From Clostridia bacterium (GTDB taxonomy: Bacteria > Bacillota > Clostridia > Acetivibrionales > JAFADI01), in NCBI GenBank assembly GCA_026418695.1, contig JAOAAU010000147.1, positions 20,484 through 84,483 on the forward strand: a stretch of 64,000 nucleotides of DNA, read 5' to 3'. Positions 49,382-55,842 of this stretch are shown here, piece after piece. The notes under the pieces are model-generated. The model was not told the origin of the DNA. It was given only the letters and a program-made list of their open reading frames with translations, and did no database searches. How positions within the stretch are numbered: the first letter of the stretch is position 1; every line of letters starts with the position of its first letter. Both the position numbers and the translations under genes were made by a program.

Positions 49382-50950
49382 ATGAATAAGCGGTTAAAAA
49401 AACTATACAAACCATTGATTGGCTTAACTGTGTGCTTTTGTATCTGCACACTAAGCGCCTTCCAGGTTACTGGGTATGCTGAGCCACAAAAGAACTCAGA
49501 CAAGTCCGTTGTACCCCAACAAGCTGCTCCCGTTCGTTATATCAGTACACTTTTTTACAAGGCCGATGTAGAAAAAGATCTTGTTTACAAGGAAGTGAAG
49601 AACTTCAAAGGCGAGCAGCAAGAGTTAAAGCTGGACGTGTATCAGCCATCCGGTGATACTGCATCTGCAAGGCCGGCGATTGTTTTTGTACATGGCGGCG
49701 GTTTGGTTGGTGGCAGCAAGGATGAAGCTTACTTTAAGAACTTTTGTACTGACTTTGTCAAAAAAGGCTATGTAGTTTTCAGTATTGACTACAGGTTGAG
49801 GGAAAACCAGGACCAGTACATGGATGCTTTAAAGGATGCAGCCGCTGATACGGCTTCAGCAGTAGAATGGGTCATAAGCAACAGCAGCAAATACAAGGTG
49901 GATAAAAACCATATTGCTTTTCTGGGTCATTCCGTTGGAAGCGATATCATCAACAACCTGTGCTATAACGATAAAGCTTCCAGCAAACTGCCAAAAGACA
50001 GCATCTATGCCGTAGTAGAAATCGCTGGAGCCGGCTTGTCATTATTCACAGATAAAGGCGTCGTAAAGAAAAATGCTCCCCCTTGCCTCATCGTACACGG
50101 TACTTTGGACGAATATATTCCTTATGATCTGAGCAAGGAATTTTCAGAAGCTTTAAAAAAGAATGAAATTCCCTACAGTTTTCTTACCCTAAAGGATGGG
50201 ACACATCTTTTTAGAGACGATTACTATGAAGTTGTGGACACTTCTGTACAGTTTCTGTACAATCAGCTGATAGGTTTTACTGTGAGAGCAAACAAACAGC
50301 TGTCCATGGAAAAAATCCTGCAAAGGCGGACATCCGGTAAAACCTACAAAGCAAAACAGGTTGATTTTAAAGCAGACGGAAAACTGGATGAATGGGGAAA
50401 ATCCGACGTTTTGAATTTCGATCAAGGGGATGAGTTTACCCTTGAACTCCCTACAAAAGCTGAATTTTCAGGAACTGCCATGATCGGTTGGAACGAAAAT
50501 GACCCTACCCGTATTTATATTGCTGCTACCATCACCGATGATGTTATCCAGAATAATATTCCTGCGGATGGCTGGTGGAGGGCAGATGATACCCTGGAAA
50601 TCAGAACCGACTTATCGGATGACGCTGTGCTTCCCTCCTTGCTTTGGGCTATTGGCGCAACAGGTGATTTATCAGAAATAGCTGCCAAAGACTCTACTGA
50701 ATGTAAAGTCGTGAGAAATGGAACTACCTCTGTTTATGAAATTGCACTCAATCTGGCAAAAGCAAACCCAAAATCTTCTGATATGAAAGCAGTTGTTGAA
50801 AAATTCAAATGTGAAAAAGGCAAAACTATTGGAATTGGCTCGTACTATGATGATACTGAAACCTGGAAGACCGTTGGTTGGGTTGCTGGTCCTGTCGAGG
50901 ATCGTCTGAGCTATGTCAATGTTGTCTTCGATGCGGCCAAAGCTAAGTAA
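49382..50950 (+). CDS. Secreted alpha/beta-hydrolase (HSL-type esterase) with a C-terminal CBM9-like domain
   Basis: Signal peptide; HGGG, GHSVG, VHGTLD, GTH; C-terminal ADGKLDEWG...IYIAATITDD...DDTLEI...YEIAL; RBS AGGAGG. Confidence 0.82.
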   Translation: MNKRLKKLYKPLIGLTVCFCICTLSAFQVTGYAEPQKNSDKSVVPQQAAPVRYISTLFYKADVEKDLVYKEVKNFKGEQQELKLDVYQPSGDTASARPAIVFVHGGGLVGGSKDEAYFKNFCTDFVKKGYVVFSIDYRLRENQDQYMDALKDAAADTASAVEWVISNSSKYKVDKNHIAFLGHSVGSDIINNLCYNDKASSKLPKDSIYAVVEIAGAGLSLFTDKGVVKKNAPPCLIVHGTLDEYIPYDLSKEFSEALKKNEIPYSFLTLKDGTHLFRDDYYEVVDTSVQFLYNQLIGFTVRANKQLSMEKILQRRTSGKTYKAKQVDFKADGKLDEWGKSDVLNFDQGDEFTLELPTKAEFSGTAMIGWNENDPTRIYIAATITDDVIQNNIPADGWWRADDTLEIRTDLSDDAVLPSLLWAIGATGDLSEIAAKDSTECKVVRNGTTSVYEIALNLAKANPKSSDMKAVVEKFKCEKGKTIGIGSYYDDTETWKTVGWVAGPVEDRLSYVNVVFDAAKAK

Positions 50951-51040
50951 TGAGAAATTTTGAAAGCAAAAGAGCCTCAAATTTCTGAAATCACTGCAAC
51001 AAACCTCGCGTAATAGGATCATGGTGCTCACAAAAACAAT

Positions 51041-51095
51041 AAAAATAAGGCTGAGATATGAAATTCATTCGAACTCGTTTCTCAGCTTTATTTTT
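51041..51095. terminator. Bidirectional terminator
   Basis: AAAAATAAGGCTGAGA...TCTCAGCTTTATTTTT between convergent genes. Confidence 0.75.
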
Positions 51096-51137
51096 ACTTA
51101 ACCTTTTATTTTTAGGGTTGCTTCTCCAGAATTACTT

Positions 51138-52649
51138 TTACACGATCTTATCATACGTCTGTTTGAATATCTCACCATCACAAATATAATAATCTTCCAG
51201 GCTGTTGATCAAAAGGTAATCCCCTCTCTTTCCAAGAAAATCACCCCATACCGTTCTTACCTTCACCTTTTCATAGAGCTTTACAGCATCCACCATGGAT
51301 TCTTCGACTGTCATGCAAATTTTAAATTCATGAATGTTATCCTTTGTGATTCTAAGCAGCATTGAATCCGATTGGATACTGACCCCGTACTCGTCCAAAT
51401 ATCCGTCTGAGAGGCATTTGGTATTTTTGTGATCTACAACTTGATACTTTTTCTCGAAGGTTTCAGAAGATATCGGCCAAATATCATTTTTCACCCCGAT
51501 GATCACTTTATCTTTTACCGATGCTGTTGCGGTTCCTTCCAGAGTCTTAACTGCAACATCCTCCTTAAAGTAATCCCTGATATCCAAGAAGCGGAGACAA
51601 ATCTTCTTTTTCTTTGCCCTAAATAATTTGTCCCTGCTAAAAATATCATAAGGATTGTCCTTCCCCGTTTGAAGCAGCCGAACCTCCCGGCAGTAATCGA
51701 TGATTTTCGTCCGGATCAGGATTCCAAGGGATACTCGCGGATGAACCTGCTCCAAGCGGTTTTTGACAATATATCCTCCGGCTTTGTTTTCATGTCCCCC
51801 TCCTGACCCAATTCCATCCGTCAGCTCCCTGACCAATTCCTCTGCAGTGAAATAATCATGATAGCTTCGGATAGACAGCTTACACCCATTGCTTCGTTGG
51901 GAGTAAGCAATCACTATATTGATCCCTTCGATCTCCATCAATAGATCGGAGATATGGCCCAGAAGGTTGTCATCACATTCTTCAATCCCTGAAAAAATAA
52001 TATTTTGATACCGTTCTGTTTTTAAAATACCTGAAGCATAAATCTTCAGATCTTCAAAGGACAAAGAGGAGAGTCGCAAATGATCAATGATATTTTTGTC
52101 ATACAGCGCTGTCAGTTCCTTTTTTGCATCCTCATCAAGGGTCGTCATCCTCCCGTTGAACATATCCGTATCCATAAATATCCCATAATACATCACGGTG
52201 GCCAAAGGCTGATCCAACCTGACTCCGAACTGCTTCAGGTAATTCAGCACCAGCGTGGTACAAGCCCCGATCCTTGGCTGGATATCCTCATAAATGTAAT
52301 CCTGCATGGCCTCTTTGATATGATGGTCAACCACAGCGATATTTTTTGCTACAACTTTATGTACATTTGCAGCTCCATACTGGCAATCCACATTGATTAA
52401 AAGTTCTTCTTCTCCAATCTCGTAGCCTTCGTTGATCAAAGTCATACGAATCCGGTAATCACTGAGGATTTTGCTGATATTGGGTTTAAAGGTATTGCTG
52501 CCATAATAGATAATTTCTGCTTCAGCGCCGAAGCTTTCCACCAGCTTCTTCATTCCCCAGGCGGATGCAATGGCATCCGCATCAGGATAGTTGTGAGGCT
52601 GTATATATACCTTTCGGAATCTTTCACATAAGTTTCTTATTTCGCCCAT
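51138..52649 (-). CDS. DHH/DHHA1 phosphoesterase with two C-terminal PGDYG-like modules
   Basis: HNYPDADA, NVD, VVDHH, GIFMDT and SGGGHENKAGG all intact. C-terminal repeats VKTLEG...DKVIIGV...WP...FEKKY and VRTVWG...GDYLL...YYI...FKQTY. RBS AAGGAG before ATG 52649 (503 aa). Confidence 0.85.
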   Translation of the reverse strand: MGEIRNLCERFRKVYIQPHNYPDADAIASAWGMKKLVESFGAEAEIIYYGSNTFKPNISKILSDYRIRMTLINEGYEIGEEELLINVDCQYGAANVHKVVAKNIAVVDHHIKEAMQDYIYEDIQPRIGACTTLVLNYLKQFGVRLDQPLATVMYYGIFMDTDMFNGRMTTLDEDAKKELTALYDKNIIDHLRLSSLSFEDLKIYASGILKTERYQNIIFSGIEECDDNLLGHISDLLMEIEGINIVIAYSQRSNGCKLSIRSYHDYFTAEELVRELTDGIGSGGGHENKAGGYIVKNRLEQVHPRVSLGILIRTKIIDYCREVRLLQTGKDNPYDIFSRDKLFRAKKKKICLRFLDIRDYFKEDVAVKTLEGTATASVKDKVIIGVKNDIWPISSETFEKKYQVVDHKNTKCLSDGYLDEYGVSIQSDSMLLRITKDNIHEFKICMTVEESMVDAVKLYEKVKVRTVWGDFLGKRGDYLLINSLEDYYICDGEIFKQTYDKIV

Positions 52650-52689
52650 GGTTGGTCTCCTTTGAGTATTGCTCCGGTAAATATTTTTC

Positions 52690-54417
52690 TTACTTAATAA
52701 TATAGGGATCCGATTCGCTTCCTTCACCAGATAACGATAATCCCGCAGGGTTCAGGTATAAGGCCGGCCGGACACCACCTCCCGCCATGGTTGCATAGTC
52801 AGTATATATCTCATCCCCGGCAGGAGCTACTATACACACGTCACTGGGACTGTCCCCCCGGGGTGTGCACAGCCACCACATGTGGTAACCTCCGTATTGG
52901 CCTTTAAGCTCCTTGTACCAATTTGATTTATCACGGTCAATGGCTTCCTTGGTGGGAGATGTTTTCAAATCCCATCCGCGGTCATAAAGATATTCCTCAG
53001 CTTCCTTTACCGACAGCAGGAACACTTTGTCCTGAATATTTTTGTAGAATGCCTGGTCATAATTGACTATGGCTTCTCCAACCGGCTCCTTAATCAATGA
53101 ATAGGAGGCAGAGCCTCCGTCCTTGCTCCCTTTTTCCGGTGAGGGCAAGAGTACCTTATGGCTGACTGGCTTGATCAGGCCTCTTTCCTTTTCAGAGAAG
53201 TTGTGCAGAAAGCCCGGCTCGTTCTCATATCCGTTCATGCCTCTGGCAACAGCAGCAGGTACCGGCGGCTGTGAATGGAAAGATACCCTCCGCTCTGTAC
53301 TGTTCAACCATTCTCTCAGATTGGAGTTTGCCCAGTAATTGCTCCCCTTCATTTTCCGAAGGTCTGTCTCTGAATAGTCGGTATAGACCTTGGACCGCTG
53401 CCGGTGGACATCAAACTCGATTCCTGTACCGGTTTTATTATAAGTTCCGCTCTCCGCAGCATCAAACGACTTCATCGTCAGGATCTTTGCAGCCAACAGC
53501 AAAGGGCTTCCTTTAGAATCTATATGGATGACTCTCCAATCAATCATTGCTCCGTTAAAAGTACCAAAGCGGATATATTCTCCGATTTTCAAGCTAGGTT
53601 TCTCATCCTGTAGGCTGGTTGTGCTTCCCTGCTTTACTTCTTCCCTGGATACCGCTTCCGTGCCCAACTCACTGGATTTGGAGTTATTCATTGGGCTGTT
53701 GTCTCCTGTATCCTGGTCCGAAGTTTCTTTGTCCAGTAATTTTTCTTCTGTCTTTCCATCAGTCCTCTTATTAGAAACGTCCTCCCCTGCAGGTTTCACC
53801 TGATCGTTGGGAGTCAGGCTTTTTTTCCCGCTGGATTCTATACTTCCAGTCGAAACCAGGTTGGCTTTTGCTGACTCCGTGCTCCGGTCATACCACTGGA
53901 AAACCCCGAAAGCGGTCATGGAAAGGGCAATTCCAGCCGCAAGGAACATGATATTCTTTATAATTGGGGATTTGGCCTTGGAAGCCGGAACTTTCCTATT
54001 ATTCTCCGTCTGATGTTGGGGAATCAGCTTACCCAGGGTATCCACCAGACATTCGATATGAGCCTCCATATCCGGAGTCAGTGCATCCAGCCAATGGGTG
54101 GAATACAAAAAATACTCCATGGACTTTGTAGGTACGACATCCTCAATTCGAAAGGGAACAATGATTACATTTTTATTGACCGCCCTTTCGACTTCACGGA
54201 GAACCTGCTGGGAACTGTTGGCTGCCGATGAAAAAATCAGAACCATAATCCGGCTTTGCCCGATCGCTTCGACAATGGCTTCTCCCCATTCTCTTCCCGG
54301 GATCACATCCCTTGGAGCAATCCAGCACCTGATTTTATTATTTTCCAGCGCTGAGCAAACAGCATCGGCAATATGCTTGTCTTTTGACGAATATGAAATA
54401 AATATGTCGTGTGCCAC
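52690..54417 (-). CDS. TIR domain - TM - low-complexity linker - DUF6273-like ectodomain protein
   Basis: HDIFISYSSKD...CWIAPRDV..G...VLREVERA (catalytic Glu); TM IMFLAAGIALSMTAFGVF; FGTFNG...WRVI...SNLREWLN...DKVFLLS...WWLCTP...GVRPAL. GTG start at 54417 with RBS GGGGGT. Confidence 0.85.
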   Translation of the reverse strand: MAHDIFISYSSKDKHIADAVCSALENNKIRCWIAPRDVIPGREWGEAIVEAIGQSRIMVLIFSSAANSSQQVLREVERAVNKNVIIVPFRIEDVVPTKSMEYFLYSTHWLDALTPDMEAHIECLVDTLGKLIPQHQTENNRKVPASKAKSPIIKNIMFLAAGIALSMTAFGVFQWYDRSTESAKANLVSTGSIESSGKKSLTPNDQVKPAGEDVSNKRTDGKTEEKLLDKETSDQDTGDNSPMNNSKSSELGTEAVSREEVKQGSTTSLQDEKPSLKIGEYIRFGTFNGAMIDWRVIHIDSKGSPLLLAAKILTMKSFDAAESGTYNKTGTGIEFDVHRQRSKVYTDYSETDLRKMKGSNYWANSNLREWLNSTERRVSFHSQPPVPAAVARGMNGYENEPGFLHNFSEKERGLIKPVSHKVLLPSPEKGSKDGGSASYSLIKEPVGEAIVNYDQAFYKNIQDKVFLLSVKEAEEYLYDRGWDLKTSPTKEAIDRDKSNWYKELKGQYGGYHMWWLCTPRGDSPSDVCIVAPAGDEIYTDYATMAGGGVRPALYLNPAGLSLSGEGSESDPYIIK

Positions 54418-54627
54418 TTTCAATACCCCCAAATGATGTAACAGACAGGCTTTATCCGTTTGTCATTTATTGCTTATCTTTGATAAATATGATAATTCTT
54501 TTTCTATCAAAAAATGTTTCTCATAGATACTAATTATACCAAAATATAACGAAAATGGTATTGATTAATTGAAAAATTTGTAATTACTTGTTGATTGTAG
54601 GTCTATAATTTCGCCAATCTGCACAAT

Positions 54628-54655
54628 AAAAAGCACAACAAACCAGTTGTGCTTT
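54628..54655 (-). terminator. Rho-independent terminator
   Basis: AAAGCACAAC...GTTGTGCTTT; separates the acyltransferase from the TIR operon. Confidence 0.7.
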
Positions 54656-54720
54656 CGAGGGTCTTTATTTATATTGGAAGATTGCCATCCTTTAAACATG
54701 TTCTATAAGCTTTGTAAGTA

Positions 54721-55842
54721 TTATAAAACTTTTTTCAGTGCAGGCATTTGTTTCAACATATATCCAACACTCCAAGACAGAATCATTCCAGTTAATATCT
54801 GCACAAGAAATTTTAAAACTACCGGCAAATGAACGTTTCTCGTTGCGTACAGCACTGCAAACGCAATATTCAAATGAACAATATAAGTACCGTAACTAAC
54901 ACTGGATATCTTCCTGACTATCGGATGATCCCCATGAAACACTCTTTGGAATACGCCCAACAATAAAAGAGTCCAAGAGAGAATAGAAATATTAAGCATT
55001 AATGCAACTGCCAGCTTTTCTACCGGTGTACCCGGACTGGTATGGAAAACAATCGCATATAGAACCGTATAGACCAAGATTGAAAATGTATAAAAAACGG
55101 CCCAGGGCGTAATTCCTGGCTTATATCCATCCGCTCTGAACCAGTTTCGTTGATGTGCATACATCCCAAATAAGAAATAGCATATGTATAAAGGCATTCC
55201 GACATTTTGGAAAGCAATGAAATAGGTTGAAGTCCAAGCAAAAGTACTGTAACGCAGATATACTATAAAATGCATACCTGTAGTGACCGCAATAAATAGA
55301 ACAAATAACCGCCATGAAGGCTTTTTATTCCTCTCTCTAAATGCTTTTCCTCTCACTTTGAGTATAGAAAAAATGAAAGCTGTTATGAAAGAAAAGTATA
55401 ATAATATTCCAAGAAACCACAAATGGGCATGGTTAAAAAACTCAGGCTTAAAGCCCTTGGAAACCCAAAAATCAAAATAGTTCATCCGTTGTCCAGAAGA
55501 GAGGTAGGCAGTATAACTTAAGCCTGGCACCAGAAAAACCAAGCCTAAAACCTGTGGTATTCCTAATCTGATGCATCGATCCGTTAAAAACTGCTTTACA
55601 CCCTTTTGTCGAATGGACGGTAACGTAAAATATCCTGCAATAAAGAACATTACCGCCATGAGAATAGGGCTGTCTAAAACGGTACAAATTATTCCAAACA
55701 GAGCGTTGTTTTCTTCCGGATTGTGTACCCAACCATAGATTTGGGGTTTAATATAGGATATTGCAGTATGTAGAACGATTACAAGAAAAATAATAAATGC
55801 ACGTAGCATGTCCAAAAACTGAATTCTATTGGATCCTTTCAT
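54721..55842 (-). CDS. Acyltransferase family 3 (OpgC/MdoC-like)
   Basis: RIQFLDMLRA...VIVLH, MFFIAGYF, HLWFL, SYGTYIVH; about 10 TM. Confidence 0.88.
   Translation of the reverse strand: MKGSNRIQFLDMLRAFIIFLVIVLHTAISYIKPQIYGWVHNPEENNALFGIICTVLDSPILMAVMFFIAGYFTLPSIRQKGVKQFLTDRCIRLGIPQVLGLVFLVPGLSYTAYLSSGQRMNYFDFWVSKGFKPEFFNHAHLWFLGILLYFSFITAFIFSILKVRGKAFRERNKKPSWRLFVLFIAVTTGMHFIVYLRYSTFAWTSTYFIAFQNVGMPLYICYFLFGMYAHQRNWFRADGYKPGITPWAVFYTFSILVYTVLYAIVFHTSPGTPVEKLAVALMLNISILSWTLLLLGVFQRVFHGDHPIVRKISSVSYGTYIVHLNIAFAVLYATRNVHLPVVLKFLVQILTGMILSWSVGYMLKQMPALKKVL

Follow-up and report, generated by a model that had tools for sequence, protein, structure and literature searches.

The window analyzed here is the whole stretch of 64,000 nucleotides (nt) from a Clostridia bacterium (GenBank assembly GCA_026418695.1, contig JAOAAU010000147.1, positions 20,484 to 84,483 of the forward strand). 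It contains a gene for a phosphoesterase in which DHH and DHHA1 domains are followed by a tail related to the PGDYG proteins, and directly upstream, in the same direction, lies a gene for a protein with an N-terminal TIR domain. The TIR neighbourhood of such DHH-PGDYG genes is conserved. We tentatively propose, without going so far as to call it probable, that the two genes form a module in which the PGDYG unit senses a nucleotide made by a TIR receptor and thereby controls a phosphodiesterase of the GdpP/NrnA-like type. The enzyme is best explained as a cytoplasmic DHH-DHHA1 phosphodiesterase of the GdpP, TmPDE or NrnA kind, judging from its closest sequence and model matches. The TIR protein resembles a receptor, with a cytoplasmic TIR domain, one predicted membrane helix and a variable outer domain.

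The phosphoesterase gene and its catalytic domains

51138..52649, (-) strand: DHH-DHHA1-PGDYG phosphoesterase gene, 503 amino acids (aa); stop codon 51138-51140, likely start ATG 52649
52656..52661, (-) strand: ribosome-binding site AGGAGA, 6 nt before ATG 52649, read directly from the sequence
52179..52613, (-) strand: DHH domain, residues 39-183, with the DxD and DHH motifs; PF01368, E 2.8e-13, 50.7 bits (cut-off 28.1)
51747..52004, (-) strand: DHHA1 domain, residues 242-327, with the GGGH motif; PF02272, E 2.9e-8, 34.5 bits (cut-off 25.9)

The mechanical open reading frame (51138..52727, (-) strand) extends to GTG 52727 and gives a 529-aa frame, in which the residue numbers of the DHH and DHHA1 domains and of the PGDYG modules are counted here. 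ATG 52649 is the likely start, because AGGAGA lies 6 nt ahead of it and the resulting product has the same length, 503 aa, as database entry P0002. This ATG is located 40 nt past the stop codon of the upstream TIR gene (TAA 52690-52692), the AGGAGA begins 29 nt after that stop codon, and terminator prediction gave no site between the two genes.

Both domains score above their Pfam cut-offs and the DxD, DHH and GGGH motifs are all found in the translation, which places the protein in the DHH/DHHA1 superfamily. The catalytic motif residues are nearly invariant among 20 full-length homologues (alignment A2), where G283-G285 are conserved too. By sequence, the nearest solved structures are those of the GdpP phosphodiesterase, which acts on cyclic di-AMP (c-di-AMP; 9n0l, 3.1e-22, and 5xsi, 3.2e-21), followed by nanoRNases and family II pyrophosphatases. 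By fold, the predicted full-length model (mean per-residue confidence, pLDDT, 89.8; predicted TM-score, pTM, 0.69) comes closest to the GdpP catalytic domain (5xt3, 1.7e-22), and TmPDE, DhhP, a RecJ-like protein and NrnA are matched as well. These Protein Data Bank (PDB) matches are confined to the first ~320-350 residues. Since the source genome encodes two DAC-domain (c-di-AMP synthase) genes, c-di-AMP should be present, which does not by itself make it the substrate of the enzyme.

The C-terminal tail

51426..51629, (-) strand: PGDYG module 1, residues 367-434, with a K-rich start, a T-L-E-G motif and F...Y; strands and one short helix in the AlphaFold2 (AF2) model
51330..51425, (-) strand: insert between the modules, 32 aa, residues 435-466, from alignments A1 and A4
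51141..51329, (-) strand: PGDYG module 2, residues 467-529, with a G-D-Y motif (here R-G-D-Y-L) and F..TY

A preliminary description of this DNA had reported tandem PGDYG-like modules at the end of the enzyme and had proposed that they form a single-chain pseudo-dimer. The two repeats are located where it placed them, at 51426-51629 and 51141-51329. BLASTP of one tail half against the other yields no alignment, so that profile methods are required: HHalign of the module 1 and module 2 sub-alignments (A1, 30 sequences) pairs exactly the two stretches that had been quoted, with a probability of 95.2% and an E-value of 2.6e-8 over 44 columns. Each tail half alone also matches both halves of small PGDYG proteins (16-74 and 94-149 of P0062; 10-59 and 72-122 of P0017), the E-values of these searches referring to a pre-selected set of 150 sequences. 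The same internal duplication is seen in small PGDYG proteins, in some of which it is almost perfect, and single-module PGDYG proteins of 65-100 aa also exist. The profile comparison, the half-tail searches and the duplicated small proteins all back the pseudo-dimer, and on this sequence evidence the tail consists of two homologous beta-modules of ~50 aa that would go back to an old internal duplication.

The part of the tandem-module claim that had to be given up is the idea of two full PGDYG domains, because each module corresponds to half of the 102-position Pfam PGDYG model. In relatives, the Pfam match spans both modules (P0005 residues 379-499 on profile positions 8-101; P0007 residues 57-175 on positions 7-102). 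Read through these profiles, the tail (the last ~175 aa) is one divergent PGDYG unit split by an insert, and not two units. The 32-aa insert is typical of the DHH-linked subfamily and is absent from the small PGDYG proteins, which match the tail query only at ~31-80 and ~122-174 (phmmer).

The AF2 model of the tail (pLDDT 94, pTM 0.86) is almost all beta, with an identical strand-helix-strand ending in both modules. In tail numbering (alignment A1), D149 is invariant in 30 of 30 sequences, G148 is found in 29 of 30, and position 150 is aromatic in all 30. The window's R-G-D-Y-L thus retains the G, the D and the aromatic residue, having lost the P and the final G of P-G-D-Y-G, the motif from which Pfam's PGDYG family presumably takes its name. 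The conserved positions are mostly acidic or aromatic (E43, D/E61, D149, D158, W/Y63, Y74, W140, Y150, Y160 and Y171), and the only conserved basic ones are K19 and K135.

Conserved TIR neighbourhood of DHH-PGDYG genes

Searching 399 genomes of the same class with the tail profile locates full-length DHH-PGDYG genes (~500 aa) at 27 places, the window included, which are spread over 23 genomes; the neighbours at all 27 were annotated with Pfam or with purpose-built TIR profiles. A TIR gene lies no more than two genes away at 16 of the 27 places, in 16 of the 23 genomes. Its form varies: TIR-DUF6273 at two places (the window and one other), TIR fused to a beta-propeller protein of ~1000 aa at 12, TIR followed by a separate WD40 gene at one, and TIR-NPCBM at one. 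The orientation varies too, the TIR gene preceding or following on the same strand in some cases and converging on the DHH-PGDYG gene in others. The TIR-adjacent cases fall into at least six deep lineages of a tree of 21 enzymes. All-against-all BLAST of the neighbours revealed no third recurrent gene.

The association extends to whole genomes. Of the 23 DHH-PGDYG genomes, 22 have a TIR_2 match, compared with 137 of the 400 genomes of the class sample, and eight DHH-PGDYG genomes contain no TIR_2 match besides the neighbour. A propeller-type TIR is present in 31 of 390 genomes, including 19 DHH-PGDYG genomes, bearing in mind that the sample of 390 and the sample of 399 need not be identical. 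The 18 propeller-type TIR genes found away from DHH-PGDYG have no recurrent partner.

Some other genes were seen at single loci. At L033:8226-11407 (-), a small RyR-domain gene and a gene for a 956-aa protein with a Card1-like endonuclease domain precede DHH-PGDYG in the same direction, and a related RyR-domain gene adjoins a propeller-type TIR gene in another genome (L105:10214-10504 (+)). At L041:8410-9156 (-), one DHH-PGDYG gene is immediately preceded by a 247-aa P-loop kinase-like gene, whose Pfam matches are weak (PRK, AAA_18, Zeta_toxin and AAA_33, best E 3.5e-4). The gene echoes the kinase of the giant protein P0009 described below.

The TIR partner in the window

52690..54432, (-) strand: upstream co-directional TIR gene; N-terminal TIR_2 (1.7e-21), one predicted transmembrane (TM) helix, low-complexity linker, DUF6273
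54079..54405, (-) strand: TIR domain, residues 10-118 of the 580-aa frame (Pfam)
53899..53955, (-) strand: predicted TM helix, residues 160-178 (Kyte-Doolittle, 19-residue window, mean 1.81)
52750..53358, (-) strand: DUF6273 (PF19789, 3.5e-18), presumably extracytoplasmic from the position of the helix

With helices called by a simple hydropathy threshold and no topology predictor, a hydrophobic helix stands just past the TIR domain in 10 of the 12 single-chain TIR partners scanned. Within the TIR domain, the R-E-V-E-R stretch (R74, E75, V76, E77 and R78) lies at ~54181-54207 and is invariant across 24 window-type TIRs. Its glutamates are E75 and E77; among 10 propeller-type TIRs, E93 is invariant. 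Which position would be the catalytic glutamate is judged here from general TIR motifs. Matches to known defense models are weak: PADLOC's ThsB models reach 2.4e-4 at best, and NCBIfam's Thoeris type III ThcB4 scores 16 bits (cut-off 220). Complex prediction with the full enzyme and TIR residues 1-150 scored 0.00, an outcome that gives no answer and speaks neither for nor against binding.

The TIR domain of 52690-54432 (-) belongs to a very large and highly conserved family, since 4725 of 5173 candidates match it at E<=0.001. Among the 120 listed, identity to the window TIR is 44-99% (best local alignment), in several phyla and one archaeon. The C-terminal partners of this N-terminal TIR include DUF6273, BNR-like propellers, FGE-sulfatase, OmpA, FKBP, LRR, TPR and Sel1, a variety that makes the family look like a set of TIR receptors with swappable outer domains.

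PGDYG fusions in other proteins

Among the 150 listed relatives of the tail, PGDYG is fused to DHH in 19, to SLATT_1 and SLATT_3 in five, to GGDEF in one and to an adenylate/guanylate cyclase in one, and two carry a full or partial protein kinase domain. This set of partners (DHH, SLATT, GGDEF, cyclase and kinase) suggests a sensory or regulatory domain. In Planktothrix (L051:2239-7380), a SLATT-PGDYG gene is back-to-back with a receiver (REC)-TIR gene, which is followed by a patatin-like phospholipase gene. It is the one SLATT-PGDYG locus placed by the genome-contig scan, the metagenome scan having given a single fragment of 1181 bases. Aravind's group predicted that SLATT acts as an effector under the control of an ADP-ribose derivative, according to the available part of the source (PMC9503650), and the accessible text of a Thoeris survey presents TIR + SLATT as validated type VII Thoeris, with cyclic ADP-ribose (cADPR) as the signal (bioRxiv 10.64898/2025.12.03.692087). 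The Planktothrix locus may be a variant of this TIR + SLATT type. Annexin repeats are found alongside many PGDYG stretches in the very large proteins P0009 (3743 aa) and P0040 (1452 aa). P0009 has 14 PGDYG stretches and a zeta-toxin/AAA_33-like kinase domain.

Kinship with PGDYG and viral proteins

Against Pfam PF14083 (PGDYG), the whole protein scores 18.3 bits and the tail alone 22.5 bits (E 1.5e-4), both below the cut-off of 27, and the direct match spans profile positions 6-40 only. An exhaustive phmmer search of 1.84 billion representatives with the 175-aa tail returned 157 relatives at E<=1e-3. Those that pass the PGDYG cut-off include P0016 (1.6e-10), P0017 (1.7e-10), P0019 (2.3e-10) and P0021 (6.0e-10), with 38-98 Pfam bits. 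In the Pfam table of the 150 listed relatives, 66 are counted above the cut-off and a further 17 match at E<=0.001. The comparison with PF14083 proposed in the preliminary description therefore comes out in favor of homology, by way of these cut-off-passing relatives and in spite of the low direct score. The Pfam model misses the DHH-linked subfamily, the window gene included; PF14083 is matched in 2 of 401 genomes of the window's phylum and in 2 of 401 of the phylum of the SLATT-PGDYG locus.

The resemblance of the tail to phage proteins exceeds chance, and the preliminary description was right to point to it. Five phage families, all annotated "unknown function", are matched (PHROGs 419, 4502, 36774, 1810 and 19511), with values of 2.5e-12 for phrog_36774, 4.4e-12 for phrog_4502 and 5.3e-11 for phrog_419. 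Foldseek against the predicted viral structures of BFVD gives five matches at E<=0.001 for the model of the tail, with TM-scores relative to the query (TMq) of 0.52-0.61; there are also local matches of ~50 residues, with probabilities of 0.99-1.00, to proteins named "PGDYG protein". In the ESM Atlas the tail adjoins PGDYG clusters at 0.92-0.94. From these profile and fold comparisons, the tail is a member of the wider PGDYG family, viral proteins included. It shares with PF14083 and the five PHROGs the two-module beta architecture and the motifs T-x-E-G, G-E-x-[YW]-P, G-D-[YW] and F..TY, and it differs from them in staying below the Pfam cut-off, in its 32-aa insert and in its fusion to an enzyme.

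Small PGDYG proteins are encoded on 37 viral contigs picked up by a limited pattern scan, and tblastn of one such protein against 50,697 phage records hit one record, annotated "PGDYG protein". The 76 neighbour proteins at 15 of the 37 viral loci mostly have no family, and there is no TIR among them. NAD- or phosphoribosyl pyrophosphate-related genes occur within a few kilobases of the small PGDYG gene in 4 of these 15 contigs (L084:1484-2965, L083:7187-8149, L090:2474-4008 and L080:3506-3871): a nicotinamide/nicotinate phosphoribosyltransferase, a ribose-phosphate pyrophosphokinase, a phosphoribosyltransferase with a calcineurin-like phosphoesterase, and a MazG-like pyrophosphohydrolase. A PGDYG module (P0135 residues 23-66) also matches part of phrog_4159, a phage nucleotide pyrophosphohydrolase (1.8e-7), and some of these phage enzymes may carry a PGDYG module.

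The PDB search turned up no structure of the family: the tail profile has no match among PDB sequences, the top row being an axonemal dynein heavy chain at E 1.1. With Foldseek, the tail model has no PDB match at E<=0.001. VIA-align against 48,161 chains gives weak SH3/Tudor-like rows (best Z 4.3, root-mean-square deviation (rmsd) 2.2, 50 residues), a level that the tool rates as uninformative. A full-text literature search found no function for the PGDYG family: the matches to the name all concern plant proteins, to judge by their titles, and PF14083 has none.

Proposed mechanism and its alternatives

If the module works as we tentatively suggest, a triggered receptor would use its TIR domain to convert NAD+ into an ADP-ribose-derived signal. 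The PGDYG unit would then bind this signal, and the binding would turn the DHH-DHHA1 catalytic module on or off. The enzyme's likely substrates would be (cyclic) dinucleotides or short RNAs, for example c-di-AMP or pApA. We infer the diffusible TIR product as the link between the two proteins, the PGDYG unit as its receptor, and the nature of the substrate. By analogy, the Planktothrix locus, where SLATT-PGDYG stands beside REC-TIR as in the TIR + SLATT pair that signals through cADPR, is consistent with this scheme, and so is the presumed TIR-core glutamate, which is invariant in both TIR types. The preliminary description had seen in the tail a sensor domain used by the host, and the domain fusions and conserved TIR adjacency make this plausible.

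Several points weigh against a TIR product sensed by PGDYG. The strongest, as far as a nucleotide pocket is concerned, is that the conserved PGDYG positions are acidic and aromatic, with two lysines only; sponges and Thoeris effectors are described in the accessible sources as having positively charged pockets (for effectors, bioRxiv 10.64898/2025.12.03.692087). The 14 PGDYG stretches in the 3743-aa P0009 suggest a general binding module. No TIR gene is nearby at 11 of the 27 places; genome G131, with two DHH-PGDYG copies, is missing from the list of TIR_2-matching genomes; and 12 genomes with a propeller-type TIR are not in the DHH-PGDYG list, their propeller-TIR genes having mixed housekeeping neighbours and no PGDYG. 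The genomes are related, so that the counts are of non-independent events and overstate independence. The window enzyme is the most divergent member (33% identity, on a long branch of the enzyme tree), and with a pTM of 0.69 the packing of its domains in the full-length model is uncertain. PADLOC has no model for the enzyme, and the window is no obvious defense island.

Other explanations fit parts of these data. The TIR protein could be both sensor and effector, or could signal elsewhere, with DHH-PGDYG capturing and cleaving its product as a ring-nuclease-like off-switch. The DHH superfamily includes pyrophosphatases and enzymes of cyclic and linear dinucleotides, in the part of the source available (PMC7824862); TIR adjacency is expected here just as it is when PGDYG acts as a sensor; and the 12 propeller-TIR genomes outside the DHH-PGDYG list imply that the TIR apparently works without the enzyme. 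But no other conserved candidate effector gene recurs in the neighbourhoods, and fusions to SLATT, GGDEF, cyclase and kinase domains fit a sensor placed on outputs better than a substrate clamp. We consider an off-switch unlikely. A docking role for PGDYG, as a small beta-barrel that binds protein or nucleic acid in the manner of SH3 or Tudor domains and involves no diffusible signal, is improbable in our view as well. Such a barrel might hold an RNA or DNA substrate for a DHH exonuclease, RecJ and NrnA being exonucleases of that family, or might attach the enzyme to the TIR receptor. The conserved aromatic and acidic residues resemble peptide- or cation-binding cages, unlike phosphate binders, and the repetition of the module, up to 14 times in one giant protein, suits docking, as do the only PDB resemblances, weak ones to SH3/Tudor-like barrels (Z 4.3 at best). 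A Z of 3-4 is however below the level that the tool calls meaningful, membrane SLATT effectors and cyclic-nucleotide enzymes are fusion partners that one would sooner expect of a small-molecule sensor, and a fixed protein-protein interface is hard to square with a TIR partner whose type changes while PGDYG stays.

We give still less credence to an ordinary accessory nanoRNase or dinucleotide phosphodiesterase whose TIR neighbour is simply inherited synteny among related Clostridia-like genomes, with no functional link. The 11 of 27 places that lack a TIR neighbour would then be no surprise, many of the TIR-adjacent cases come from just two families (f56 and f30), and most pairs are convergent and therefore not co-transcribed. 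Yet the adjacency survives changes of orientation, of TIR architecture and of family (f1, f2, f27, f30 and f56), the neighbour is the sole TIR_2 match in eight genomes, and co-occurrence by genome is strong: 19 of the 31 genomes with a propeller-type TIR also belong to the 23 with DHH-PGDYG. Most improbable of all is the version of the preliminary description in which the host re-uses the fold of the anti-CBASS sponge Acb4. Small stand-alone PGDYG proteins do exist in viruses, as sponges do, which bears on the general idea only. According to the accessible text of the source, Acb4 belongs to Pfam PF13876, and its structure is compared there with a ribosome hibernation factor and RNase III (bioRxiv 10.1101/2024.12.30.630793). 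Neither the whole window protein nor the tail matches PF13876 at E<=1, and kinship with Acb4 was rejected on these grounds and on the lack of a PDB sequence match. In the comparison with solved structures, Foldseek found no PDB match at E<=0.001 and VIA-align nothing above Z 4.3, in a library that need not include an Acb4 entry.

Comparison with known systems

GdpP has N-terminal membrane helices, a PAS domain and a degenerate GGDEF domain before DHH-DHHA1. The window protein has its catalytic DHH and DHHA1 domains, motifs included, in common with GdpP, TmPDE TM1595, DhhP, Pde2/NrnA and Rv2837c, which provide its best PDB matches, but Pfam finds in it no membrane, PAS or GGDEF part like those of GdpP. 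It adds a C-terminal PGDYG unit to the layout of the solved DHH-DHHA1 members, to which all sequence matches stop near residue 320.

The likeness to Thoeris, especially type VII (TIR + SLATT, cADPR), lies in a TIR gene paired with a candidate signal-reading gene; in the window the TIR gene stands 40 nt upstream of the candidate effector, on the same strand. Unlike in Thoeris, the TIR protein is predicted to be membrane-bound and to have a large outer domain, its partner is a phosphodiesterase, and the locus is in no obvious defense island. The TIR/DHH-PGDYG pairing was not found in a literature search outside of which lay Figure 1 and Table S1 (29 putative types) of the Thoeris survey; in the main text of that survey, as far as available, the terms DHH, phosphoesterase and phosphodiesterase are absent (bioRxiv 10.64898/2025.12.03.692087). 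A TIR gene with an effector gene is a known kind of system, and these comparisons suggest that the combination of a PGDYG-sensor phosphodiesterase with receptor-like TIR partners is undescribed.

Viral sponges, which are small viral proteins and often lack a known family, provide a further comparison, as PGDYG also occurs in the form of small viral proteins, including single modules that would need pairing. The families named in the accessible literature are Tad1, Tad2 (PF11195), Acb2, Acb4, Sequestin (PF21825, helical), Lockin and TadIV-1 (helical), with Lockin described as having "no known domain annotation"; PGDYG is not among the families named there. As far as compared, these differ from PGDYG in family and fold, and the conserved PGDYG residues are mostly not basic.

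Elsewhere in this part of the window, the gap between the phosphoesterase gene and the convergent esterase gene (50968-51110) gives Rfam rows at chance level only (best E 0.076), as does the Rfam scan of 50900-55000.

Biological meaning

The PGDYG family is widespread among bacteria and viruses, and its conserved pairing with TIR genes offers a role that can be tested. If PGDYG does read a TIR product, a new sensor domain would join SLOG, Macro and others, TIR signalling would be linked to the turnover of c-di-AMP or nanoRNA, and the small phage proteins would become candidate inhibitors of TIR immunity. On a broader view, which is speculative and unlikely to hold, Clostridia-like bacteria would possess a Toll-like "outside-in" pathway. 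Membrane TIR receptors with DUF6273, beta-propeller or NPCBM domains would make an NAD-derived messenger, and the PGDYG double module would be a new messenger receptor domain, switching a c-di-AMP or dinucleotide phosphodiesterase here, and SLATT pores, cyclases and kinases elsewhere. The small phage PGDYG proteins would then be sponges or decoys, a further anti-TIR family. The receptor-like build of the TIR partners also prompts one to ask whether bacteria can use TIR signalling to report on events outside the cell.

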